Origin: an uncultured SAR86 cluster bacterium
Lineage (GTDB): Bacteria; Pseudomonadota; Gammaproteobacteria; Magnimaribacterales; D2472
DNA length: 64,000 nucleotides
Assembly (NCBI GenBank): GCA_902547295.1
Contig: CACCNJ010000001.1
Span: forward strand, 18,459 to 82,458
Direction: 5' to 3'
Shown here: positions 12,001 to 15,000 of the stretch, piece by piece
How the letters are laid out: each line of letters opens with the position of its first letter
Numbering within the stretch: position 1 is the first letter of the stretch
Position numbers: made by a program

Positions 12001-15000
12001 AGAGCCTCAAAAACCTTCATACTGTTATTTTTTTGAAAATAAATTGAAACCTTTTTTGTTAAATTTTCTGACAGCCACTTTAGAGTTGGGAAATGAAGAT
12101 GATCAGGATGTTCATGAGATATCCATATGATATCAACATCAGAAATAGATTTCTTTATAGCATCTAAATTCGGCCTTGGATCAAGCTCCCAACCATCATT
12201 AAAAGCTGTACCAAAAAACCACGGATCCGTTAAAATTTTAGTATTATCGCTTTCTATAAGAATGCTTGCATGAGATATTAATGATATCTTTGAATAATTA
12301 TTTCCACTCATAAAACTTGCTCCAGCATTTAAGAAATGAGTTAATTAGCAACTAGTATACAGCGCTTGCATAACTATTCCCACTCAATAGTTGCACAAAA
12401 CACCACCTCTGAAACCCTTACTATGACAGTGTTTCCGAGTGCCCTTTTTGTGTAATACCACTTTGTCAAACTTTTATAACTCTATTGAATTTTTATTCAT
12501 TTTAAACTTCTTGCAAATTTTCTTACTTTTTGCATATGCTTTTCAAAGTCACTTTTTTCCATATTTGGAAGGACTGAATAGAATCTTAAATATTTTATCT
12601 TTAGTCCACCTGATTGAAATACAGACTTCTTTAGTCTCCTATAGGGAATATTATCGAAAAGAGAAAAATTAAAATAACTTACCATCGGTCCTCCATAAGT
12701 CATTGAAACAATACCAATTTTATTTTTCATTGCTCCAGCAACAGGATATCCATAATTCCCAAAAAACTTGCTATCAGGTAATAACGATTTGTAAGAAAAA
12801 AACCATGTTGGATGAAGAACCCAGTCAATCCAATTTTCTAGGACACCACTCATTCTTAAATTATGACAAGCACTCATTAAAAACATAACATCAGCATCTT
12901 CAAGTCTATTTCTATAATCTGTTACTAACTTTGGAGGTGGATTTATATCACTTCTATAAAATGGTAATTGTTCTTCTTCATCAAATAAATTAATCAAATC
13001 TATTTCATGTCCAATTTTTTTTGCTTCATCAATAAAGGCATCTCTCACGGATGCATTAAATGAATCTTTAGTATTGTAATGACCGAAAACTATACAAATT
13101 TTCATCTTATTCCCACTCTATAGTTGCACAAAACACCACCTCTGAAACCCCTACTATGACTGTGTTTCTGAGTGCTATTTCTTGATTTATAGACTTTGTC
13201 AAACTTTTATAACTCAAAATTTTTATTTCCTAAGTCTTTTGGATAGTTTAGGAGCATAAATATTTATACCCAAATAATTTCTTACAAAGTTTTGTCCGAT
13301 AATATAAGTTATACCAATTATTAAAATCCACCAAGAAATATCTTCTCTTACACAAAAATATATAAGTACACTGATGGCAACAAAATCAGCAATATTCATA
13401 AAAGCATCAATCCAAAAATATTTACTCTTACTCATTTTGTCACTCCCACTCAATAGTAGAACACCTCTGAAACCCCTTATTTGCAAGGTTCTGTAAATGG
13501 TGTGTCACATTTGTGTCATATGAATTATTCATTTTTTAATTTGTTTGTTTACCAACTTCATTTTTTCAAGATTTAAACCTTTTATATTCACTAAATTGCT
13601 AAAAATTGTTGCGAATAGTCGAATAGAATAATTTTCAACTTCATCAAGAAGGAAACTATATTCGGGATGAAGTTCAAAAAATAAAAACTGATCAAATTTT
13701 TCCATAGCAACTCTTGAAGAATTTTCTTTAACTCTATCACCAAAAGTATTTGCCTTTCCTACATAAATTTGATCATCATCTTTATTATTTAAGATGTATA
13801 TAACATTTGCTCTTGAAGAATATCTTTTCAGTTCTTTTTTAGGTATCCACCTATCAGAATAATCAATGAACAATTTGTCTTTCTTTTTAGATTTATTTTG
13901 GTCCTCATAGAATGCAAATAAATTTTTATCTTCTAAAAAATAAAACATCTGATCAAAATCTGTCTCTTGTTTAGAGATTACCTTGACTCTGAAGATGTTA
14001 TCTTTTTGATGAATAAACTCTAAAAGTTCTTTGAGTTTTGGTTTTGCTTTATTTCTTGTTGAAGCATAACTGTATATCATCAATTTTCTTATCTCTTTCA
14101 GAGTTTCTAATTCTCTGTCATAAAAAATTTGGACAACTTCTCTTTCTGGATATATTGTTTTCGATCTATTTTTTATTTTTCCCTTGTTGTTTATTCGTGC
14201 AATTCTTATTTTTGCTTTACGTTTTTTTCCATTTATTAATAAGATAATTTCTTTGAATTTTGTTTTTTCATTTAAATTAAAAAATTTTATATATTCTGAG
14301 TAAACTGCTTTTTGTAAAGTAAATCCCCAATGGAAAAAGTAATACCCAGGAACAACATAAAAAGAACTCAGTTTATTCATTCAATTATTATGCCATGCAC
14401 TTATGACTTTCAATAGTTCTTAAAGTGTGTCAGATTTGTATTTGTAAGATTTGGAAACCTGCATTCCTACATTGAAGTGACAAATTGTGTCACGCGTAAA
14501 CTACTGATATAAGGTAATTATTTCATTCCCACTCAATAGTTGCAGGAGGTTTGCTTGAGATATCATACACGACCCTGCTGACTCCCTCTATCTCATTTAC
14601 AATTCGATTCGATACATTTTCTAAAAAATCATATGGTAGATGTGCCCATTTTGCTGTCATAAAGTCTACTGTTTCAACAGCTCTTAAAGCAATCACTTCA
14701 GCATATCTTCTTTCATCTCCAACCACACCAACAGATTTAACAGGAAGTAAGACTGCAAATGCTTGGCTAATTTTTTCATATAATTCTGCTTTAATAAGTT
14801 CCTCAATAAAAATATTATCTGCTTGTTGTAAGATTGATATCTTTTCCTTTGTAATCTCACCAATAATTCTTACTCCTAATCCAGGCCCTGGAAAAGGATG
14901 TCTCTCAAGCATTTCTTTTGGAATTCCTAGCTCAATTCCGAGTCTCCTTACCTCATCTTTAAATAAATCTCTTAGGGGCTCGATTAGATCTAATTTCATT

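Follow-up and report, generated by a model that had tools for sequence, protein, structure and literature searches.

In the 64,000 nucleotides (nt) of DNA from an uncultured SAR86 cluster bacterium that were analysed here (the whole stretch is called the window), the GMP synthase gene guaA is followed on the same strand by a series of genes separated by copies (A, B, and C) of a repeat of about 106 bp. We conclude with high confidence that these repeats are attachment-site scars of small mobile elements inserting serially into the last codons of guaA, an essential gene, and the repeat itself very probably consists of the P arm and the core of the attachment site of a guaA-targeting family of integrative elements. 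A first-pass annotation of the same DNA had described the repeat as a guaA "mimic" with an open frame, an internal hairpin, and a variable block, and had offered three origins for it: a recombination site with arm-type sequences, a decayed foreign guaA 3' end, and a structured RNA or terminator module. The first of these is supported by our analysis, since integrase-bearing elements in other genomes carry the same arms, here named type 1 and type 2, at their far end. The target gene and the sites on which the argument turns are listed below in window positions.

14523..16088, minus strand: guaA (GMP synthase, 521 amino acids (aa)), the integration target, from the list of open reading frames (ORFs) and tblastn.
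14523..14543, minus strand: attL-type core formed by the last guaA codons and stop (GCAACTATTGAGTGGGAATGA), with the 13-nt core at 14527-14539.
13440..13532, minus strand: copy C, a type-2 P arm with core and stop; arm direct repeats ATGACACAAATGTGACACAC at 13500-13519, imperfect palindrome at about 13465-13497, core at 13444-13456, stop TGA at 13440-13442, and an in-phase small ORF of 30 codons with its ATG at 13530-13532.
13107..13215, minus strand: copy B, a type-1 P arm with core and stop; arm motif TTTGACAAAG at 13194-13203, variable block at 13176-13192, palindrome arms at 13164-13172 and 13140-13148, core at 13111-13123, stop TAA at 13107-13109.
12374..12482, minus strand: copy A, a type-1 P arm with core and stop; arm motif TTTGACAAAG at 12461-12470, variable block at 12443-12459, palindrome arms at 12431-12439 and 12407-12415, core at 12378-12390, stop TAG at 12374-12376.

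The core CTATTGAGTGGGA is common to copies A, B, and C and to the true end of guaA. On the plus strand, the 18-mer TTCCCACTCAATAGTTGC was matched four times in the window (at 12377 in A with 0 mismatches, 13110 in B with 1, 13443 in C with 3, and 14526 at the guaA end with 0), against 0.05 matches expected, and four matches were reached in 0 of 100 shuffles. The gapless alignment of A with B reported previously was confirmed over 107 nt, with 92% identity across a 73-nt stretch, and the near-identity of the repeat ends is borne out by 23 identical nt at the far end. The 17-nt internal block had been called completely different between the two copies, which is a fair description: 12443-12459 and 13176-13192 agree at 5 of 17 positions, the level of chance. 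The hairpin arms CTCNGAAAC and GTTTCAGAG were found as described in both copies (plus strand, 12407-12415 and 12431-12439 in A, 13140-13148 and 13164-13172 in B). Copy C has GGGTTTCAGAGGTG and the core in common with A and B, its spacer being 8 nt shorter.

Further copies, for which the first-pass annotation had proposed a search of genomes and marine metagenomes, are abundant. The pattern GGTTTCAGAGG-N(3-20)-CTATNGARTGGGA (the core being required in these scans) was found in 27 loci of species-representative genomes, nearly all labelled SAR86 and including the complete genome of HIMB1674, and in at least 120 marine metagenome contigs. Tblastn placed guaA immediately before the array, in the same orientation and with its own end as the first core, in 44 loci; the GuaA proteins of these loci are 57-100% identical to that of the window, which groups with SAR86 single-cell genomes at about 90%. 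The elements found were always co-oriented with guaA and always beside a core, and the locus has conserved flanks, namely a TonB receptor, a phosphoribosyltransferase, guaB, and guaA on one side and a CoA-binding protein, an enoyl-CoA hydratase, and apt on the other, with hypervariable content between them.

The matches fall into two spacing classes, 39 nt (type 1, copies A and B) and 31 nt (type 2, copy C). A search of the loci with the core alone revealed further classes, so that at least seven sequence classes of approximately 90-nt elements share one architecture: two direct repeats of an ~8-mer 11 bp apart, a spacer of ~10 nt, an imperfect palindrome, a spacer of 6-20 nt, and the core. 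The ~8-mer differs with the class (TGACACA, GTTACACG, GTTACAAAG, CTTGTAAAC, TTACTACACA, or GTTGTAAAGA), and every class ends in CTATTGAGTGGGA followed by [A/G]T[A/G]A. Since a MAFFT alignment of 31 representatives was nearly gap-free, except for an insertion of ~10 nt in type 1, the classes are homologous. The 17-nt variable block of type 1 occurs as a few discrete alleles (GGCAAAACAC, CTATAAATCA, GGTATTTCAC, in guaA orientation) and not as free drift, and occupies the slot where the other classes carry their second arm repeat. Hybrid repeats were also seen, with a type-1 left half and type-2 core spacing or the reverse (L121 at ~83 and L107 at ~1371, oriented coordinates), the halves meeting at GGGTTTCAGAGG, which both types have in common; arm classes thus seem to have recombined with each other.

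The link between these repeats and an integrase was provided by clustering the ORFs of all loci, which identified a tyrosine integrase of 406 aa (PF00589 Phage_integrase and PF13102 Phage_int_SAM_5), followed by a resolvase-type serine recombinase of 195 aa (PF00239). The two genes (int and res) come directly after the core in six loci (L135, L105, L144, L074, L034, and HIMB1674), starting ~115 nt past the core, and in L135 they directly follow guaA. A complete element has the order core, P' arm, tyrosine integrase, serine recombinase, cargo, type-1 or type-2 arm, and core. In HIMB1674, guaB and guaA are followed by int, res, a 533-aa ORF, a DNA methylase, an MvaI/BcnI-type endonuclease, and three reverse-strand genes, after which come the type-2 arm and the core; a type-2 arm like that of copy C thus forms the far end of this element. 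The type-1 elements L135 and L034 have the near arm TTTGACAAAGTTTGTCAAA with a further TTTGACAAA and end in the type-1 repeat, and TTTGACAAAG is present in both their P' and P arms. The type-2 elements L105, L144, L074, and HIMB1674 have the near arm TTTGACACA / TGTGACACA and the far arm TGACACAAATGTGACACA, and TGACACA occurs in both arms of L105, L144, L074, and L011. The presence of a class-specific motif in both arms of the integrase elements indicates an attP-like organisation with arm-type repeats, and since these elements end in the same arms, the repeats in the window are P-arm-plus-core (attR-type) junctions. The HIMB1674 element (L148, CP151794.1, 9880-17040) carries as its cargo a type II restriction-modification pair, consisting of an N6/N4 methylase and a MvaI/BcnI-family endonuclease, and a MerC-like cassette lies after its far core.

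The integrase family is common in marine metagenomes, where it forms more than 130 clusters at 90% identity. It is of the generic phage type (phrog_1); its best NCBIfam matches are XerA/XerD-like and far below the cut-offs, and its only relatives of solved structure are XerA/XerC-like (3e-4). No relative was found among PLSDB plasmids at E <= 1e-3, except four unrelated matches of 20-25% identity. A viral origin was considered and rejected, the exact repeat pattern having 0 matches and the integrase 0 relatives in IMG/VR. On a contig from a metagenome-assembled genome labelled Pelagibacterales (L151, JBJLDC010000011.1, 5836-6000), an integrase of 46% identity lies directly after guaA; the site has the same core (ACTATTGAGTGGGAATAA) and a different, thrice-repeated arm motif, CACCTAAC, and two DNA methylase genes follow. 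Provided that this contig was binned correctly, guaA may be a target of the clade outside SAR86 as well. Another relative of 36% identity (P0118) is not located at guaA, so that the boundary of the clade that targets guaA falls between 36% and 46% identity.

The point of exchange was located by comparing junctions. Junctions with the same 40-nt P arm lead into nearly as many downstream sequences as their number; for the commonest arm, 19 such sequences were counted among 20 junctions. When junctions are grouped by a common upstream sequence, the 4 nt following GGGA differ within 7 of 7 groups; when the grouping is by a common downstream sequence, they differ within 0 of 6. On the left side, guaA, type 1, and type 2 diverge immediately upstream of (A)CTATTG. 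This places the exchange within the 13-14-nt core. Of 220 distinct junctions, 215 retain GA[AG] with a stop codon behind it, as expected if each cassette start once served as the end of guaA. Movement of cassettes was observed as well: the ORF70 cassette of the window, 337 nt from core to core (13107-13443), recurs with 97.6% identity in L026 and 97.0% in L065, standing first after guaA in both and second in the window, and it moves as a unit. The variant of the repeat specific to copy B (CAAGAAATAG, CTCAGAAAC, CTATAGAG) accompanies ORF70 in both of these loci. A compensatory link between the core variant CTATAGAG of copy B and the CTATA block was rejected, the two being unassociated across loci.

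These observations suggest a scheme in which the tyrosine integrase would insert small elements into the last 13-14 nt of SAR86 guaA ((A)CTATTGAGTGGGA). Because the incoming DNA begins with [A/G] and a stop codon, the end of guaA would be restored at each insertion, and a P-arm-plus-core junction would be left each time at the far side of the inserted DNA; repeated insertion at the core nearest guaA would then build a co-oriented cassette array separated by such junctions. Strand exchange probably takes place within GAGTGGGA. Judged by their sequence, the direct repeats spaced by 11 bp (TTTGACAAAG in type 1, TGACACA in type 2) are putative arm-type protein-binding sites, and the palindrome CTCNGAAAC(CCTT)...(AAGG)GTTTCNGAG is a putative binding site of a dimeric accessory protein rather than a folded nucleic acid, for which the core domain of the integrase, a host factor, and the serine recombinase of the element are candidate binders. 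The features by which an attachment site may be recognised, namely a core shared between gene and element ends, arm motifs in both arms, and breakpoints in the core, were all found; a cognate integrase adjoining the site was found in other genomes and not in the window.

Several observations weigh against this interpretation. The 64-kb window contains no gene for an integrase or a resolvase (tblastn), so that its cassettes could be moved only by an integrase acting in trans or by homologous recombination between repeats. Among the contigs no circular or excised form was found and none had terminal overlaps, and none of the elements was found in viral contigs. The distal segment of the array, which comprises ORF458 and a glycosyltransferase gene, has no terminal core (10092-12374, up to 2 mismatches), and its membership in the array is uncertain. 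ORF202, the cargo next to copy A, occurs in 21 loci, directly after cores of various kinds or after guaA itself, and is followed by differing arm types or by none in different genomes. Gene-arm linkage is thus not always fixed, and homologous recombination between repeats may contribute; the existence of the type-1/type-2 hybrids indicates that such recombination probably also shuffles the array. Since ORF202 is frequently the last gene before the conserved CoA-binding flank, it may be an ancestral guaA neighbour. Finally, the start codon that follows a core stop falls in one of two distance ranges, 0-14 nt (44 of 162 contexts) or 50-300 nt behind a P' leader, and the 44 cassette contexts without a P' arm are unexpected under lambda-type attL x attR excision.

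The palindrome requires separate consideration, as it bears on the alternative explanations. Its consensus across classes is CTCNGAAACCCTT - loop - AAGGGTTTCNGAG, located 9-16 nt from the core; in type 1 the upper stem is lost and there is a G·A mismatch (A·A in copy B). Folding of single sequences was weakly better than that of shuffles (z = -2.0 and -1.4 for the minus strand, -2.65 and -0.22 for the plus strand). In the alignment of 31 sequences the proposed register was the best, with 70.0% of cells pairing versus 27-55% when the partner was slid; when partners were shuffled within columns, 68.6% paired and 87 of 500 shuffles were as high as the observed value. The compensatory changes that had been suggested as a check on the hairpin are thus not seen beyond column composition, and the palindrome is conserved as sequence, with no evidence of compensatory change. 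The repeat had also been expected to lie always beside the guaA-type core, and all 165 of 165 hairpin-like matches in the loci adjoin one, 149 on the upstream side and 16 in a P' arm. From its presence on both sides of the core and its constant association with it, we infer a protein-binding DNA site. The 5' palindrome arm of type 1 reads CTCGGAAAC (or CTCAGAAAC or CTCGTAAAC; window 12431-12439 and 13164-13172), and in other classes this arm is CTCTGAAAC, which pairs perfectly. With T at that position, type 1 would acquire an in-phase TGA; type 1 has G or A, and in the lone type-1 copy with T (L120) the frame is truncated.

Among the alternatives, the best surviving one is an integron-like platform, in which the ~90-nt element would be an attC-like folded single strand, the guaA end would correspond to attI, and guaA transcription to that from Pc, so that promoterless cassettes would be excised and re-inserted singly. 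The cassettes are indeed single-gene and co-oriented, measuring as little as 337 nt from core to core; for 27% of them the site is on one side only (ATG 0-14 nt past the core stop); the type-1 palindrome mismatch is conserved, and the variable block of copy A can pair with the core-proximal TTTTGTG; and many sequence classes show a single architecture. We nevertheless consider this explanation improbable, as the integrase fails the integron model TIGR02249 (17.9 bits against a cut-off of 265), the junction is ...GAGTGGGA| with no GTTRRRY at the boundary, the breakpoint lies 9-16 nt outside the palindrome, covariation in the palindrome is not above column composition, and full elements are two-armed with arm-type repeats, like attP.

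A further step down in probability, and very improbable in our view, is the derivation of the repeats from decayed foreign guaA 3' ends through gene transfer or gene conversion, the open frame being a coding relic. The core does match the guaA end exactly, which makes the proposal true in a trivial sense only, and the TIEWE-phase frame is open over ~33 codons in types 1 and 2. The echo of GuaA that had been noted in the peptide is visible (GVSEVVF...ATIEWE against GVSRVVY...ATIEWE of GuaA), but the similarity is weak beyond the core: the commonest type-1 variant reaches p = 0.0045, and the window copies are non-significant (p = 0.17 for A, 0.067 for B). A GuaA-derived coding relic was rejected on the ground that this one variant alone reaches such a value. 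In addition, identity with guaA does not reach beyond 13-17 nt from the stop codon, the frame in which type 2 reads the shared nucleotides is a different one, the variation has no codon periodicity, and the elements have arm repeats and a palindrome unlike guaA and form the far ends of integrase elements.

The least probable explanation, that each cassette carries at its 3' end a structured RNA, a terminator, or a module stabilising the mRNA, has in its favour the hairpin in A and B with its sense-strand folding scores and the position downstream of each cassette gene, and is unsupported otherwise, as the repeats match no Rfam family at E <= 1, no terminator or T-run after the stem was found at the repeats, observed pairing hardly exceeds that of the shuffles, and the palindrome also occurs in P' arms across the core, which fits a DNA site over a transcript feature. 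Promoter-like sites were not enriched (11 versus 13.5 expected).

The open frame of the repeat nevertheless deserves comment apart from the attachment-site function proposed above. In copy A the minus strand holds an uninterrupted 35-codon frame, as the first-pass annotation stated. Copy C had been called out of frame, which is correct insofar as the shared nucleotides are read in another frame there, but copy C has an in-phase ORF of its own, with 30 codons and an ATG (13532..13440, MNNSYDTNVTHHLQNLANKGFQRCSTIEWE*), and this ATG overlaps the stop codon of the upstream ORF283 as ATGA. The median open length of the TIEWE-phase frame is 33 codons for types 1 and 2 and 24.5 for the remaining classes, versus 6-27 for other frames; per sequence family, the in-phase frame is the longest in only ~16-18 of 31. 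Many copies have an ATG just past the upstream stop, with an ATGA overlap in 8 type-1 and 8 type-2 contexts, and roughly one type-1 copy in four, A and B of the window among them, has no in-phase ATG. Conservation had been thought to act on nucleotides rather than on protein, and rightly so, the variation showing no codon periodicity (p about 0.5). Selection on the peptide was likewise rejected, entropy being equal at the three codon positions; without codon periodicity and with only weak similarity to GuaA, no peptide is conserved.

A tentative extension, which we regard as possible but rather doubtful, is that the guaA locus acts as an IntI-independent, integron-like expression platform in which translational coupling is relayed from cassette to cassette in any order. 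Cassettes might then be transcribed from guaBA, and many might perhaps rely on ribosomes terminating at a guaA-type stop 0-14 nt upstream; the ORF of ~30-40 codons ending in ...TIEWE-stop, often starting by ATGA overlap, could conceivably pass the coupling on. The in-phase frame, open over about 33 codons in types 1 and 2 where other frames reach 7-27, the ATGA overlaps, the bimodal start distances, and the avoidance in type 1 of the T that would make TGA speak for such a relay; the lack of codon periodicity, the missing in-phase ATG in about a quarter of type-1 copies, and the families in which another frame is the longest speak against it.

The array of the window reads, in order, guaA, a type-2 leader with ORF283, copy C, ORF70, copy B, ORF202, copy A, ORF458 with a glycosyltransferase gene, and the conserved flank; the genes between the copies are single and all on the guaA strand. 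The features that accompany the repeats are as follows.

14381..14522, minus strand: type-2 P'-arm leader of cassette 1, with palindrome GTGACACAATTTGTCAC at 14477-14493, degenerate arm motif ACAAATCTGACACAC at 14425-14439, and degenerate core remnant GAACTATTGAAAGTCATAAG at 14400-14419.
13529..14380, minus strand: ORF283, cargo of cassette 1, with a weak C-terminal GIY-YIG match.
13223..13435, minus strand: ORF70, cargo of cassette 2, a small hydrophobic protein, with its ATG 4 nt past the stop of core C.
12497..13105, minus strand: ORF202, cargo of cassette 3, flavodoxin-like fold / NAD(P)H-dependent FMN reductase family (Pfam PF02525, 1e-19; PF03358, 1e-12), with its ATG 1 nt past the stop of core B.
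10129..12311, minus strand: distal segment, ORF458 (metallo-beta-lactamase fold) and a family-2 glycosyltransferase (260 aa), from Pfam; GC 25-30%.
9679..10092, minus strand: CoA-binding protein (Pfam), the first gene of the right flank, marking the end of the variable region.

The TGACACA motif of the window leader is common to the arms of type-2 integrase elements, and the first 140-170 nt of the leader are 76-94% identical to post-core segments in 17 other loci, where they stand before different cargo. Attachment-only "empty" units without cargo were seen in L031 (556-753), L008 (~2008-2190), and the window (14381-14522); such a unit consists of a core, a leader of ~120-160 nt with arm motifs, and then the next arm and core or a degenerate core. 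For ORF283 the Pfam match to GIY-YIG (E = 4.4e-4) is below the curated cut-off, no PHROG or NCBIfam match was found, and the protein is a singleton cluster among the 150 loci fetched. ORF283 was rejected as the enzyme of the system, being found only in the window with a match below cut-off, and true integrases having been found elsewhere. A promoter-like site, TTGAAA-18-AATAAT (14384-14413), overlaps the degenerate core remnant just upstream of ORF283. The conserved right flank (CoA-binding protein, enoyl-CoA hydratase, apt, and a short-chain dehydrogenase/reductase) follows the arrays in the same order in many loci. Elsewhere in the window, dense 12-nt tandem repeats with 13 copies of a 72-nt register (GGAGCTGGAGTCGGAGCCGGTGTA...) lie at 35080-35450 inside an ORF near tRNA-Pro(GGG). 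Beyond this ORF and tRNA-Pro comes a stretch of ~28 kb (36000-64000) in which every gene is on the minus strand and GC is low (24-31%); it resembles another variable island and may concern cell-surface polysaccharide.

The nearest counterpart known is GIsul2, a genomic island of Gamma- and Betaproteobacteria that uses GAGTGGGA in the 3' end of guaA as its integration site and whose integrase also moves an integrase-less CR2-sul2 unit via a third att site (PMC9376610). The guaA-end core of the window contains GAGTGGGA, the site reported for GIsul2, and in the SAR86 elements generally this target lies within the core CTATTGAGTGGGA; both have a tyrosine integrase near the guaA-proximal end and a resolvase gene. 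No close relative of the SAR86 integrase was found among PLSDB plasmids, and no alpA, rep, tra, toxin-antitoxin, or resistance modules were seen in the SAR86 elements. They are also 3-7 kb long or single-gene cassettes, and form long hypervariable arrays with at least seven arm classes.

Tycheposons build islands at tRNA and tmRNA genes in Prochlorococcus (bioRxiv 10.1101/2020.12.28.424599). Like the SAR86 elements they are small, use a tyrosine recombinase, and reside in a streamlined and abundant marine host, and in both cases target-derived att repeats mark a flexible island and cargo-only, degenerate, and tandem forms occur. In contrast to tycheposons, the SAR86 elements target the end of a protein gene, the only tRNA gene of the window (Pro, 35830-35906) being 20 kb away, and replication or packaging hallmark genes were not seen in them. 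The tycheposon paper mentions neither SAR86 nor guaA.

Integrons resemble the SAR86 arrays in their co-oriented, mostly single, and apparently promoterless genes, in the imperfectly palindromic site of ~60-100 nt after each gene, with class-varying sequence and constant architecture, in the crossover at the cassette boundary, and in the existence of integrase-less arrays. The SAR86 system fails the defining integron tests: its integrase is not IntI, the junction is not GTTRRRY, the crossover is outside the palindrome, covariation is absent, and full elements are two-armed, with an integrase of their own. In class 1 integrons a short attI ORF (ORF-11) helps to translate cassettes that have no initiation region of their own, and the small ORFs of the SAR86 elements may be regarded as a parallel to it.

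Cis-mobilizable elements (CIMEs) and the tandem accretion of integrative and conjugative or integrative and mobilizable elements (ICEs, IMEs) share with SAR86 the accumulation of integrase-less, att-bounded DNA at a conserved gene end. Streptococcal IMEs and SaPIbov are found at guaA. PIMEs also integrate adjacent to guaA (bioRxiv 10.64898/2026.01.12.698999). Compared with CIMEs, guaA IMEs, PIMEs, and SaPIbov, the SAR86 elements show no conjugation, mobilisation, or phage-satellite genes, and their cassettes are miniaturised to single genes, many without a P' arm. The SAR86 system is distinguished from the known ones by an apparently different integrase clade, its host, miniaturisation to single genes, and its many arm classes.

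In our literature search no paper was found that links SAR86 with guaA-targeted elements. SAR86 is among the most abundant groups of heterotrophic bacteria in the surface ocean and has a streamlined genome; to our knowledge, the gain and loss of its flexible genes are poorly understood. With a complete element present in the cultured strain HIMB1674, excision, integration, and mobilisation in trans are directly testable. The guaA locus offers a concrete mechanism of gene flux in SAR86, in the form of a family of site-specific integrases directed at the end of guaA, where the TIEWE codons are nearly universal, and the hypervariable array between conserved flanks can be tracked in metagenomes by its 13-nt anchor. 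The GAGTGGGA site used by GIsul2, a resistance island of clinical Proteobacteria, is also exploited by an apparently unrelated integrase clade of the open ocean.

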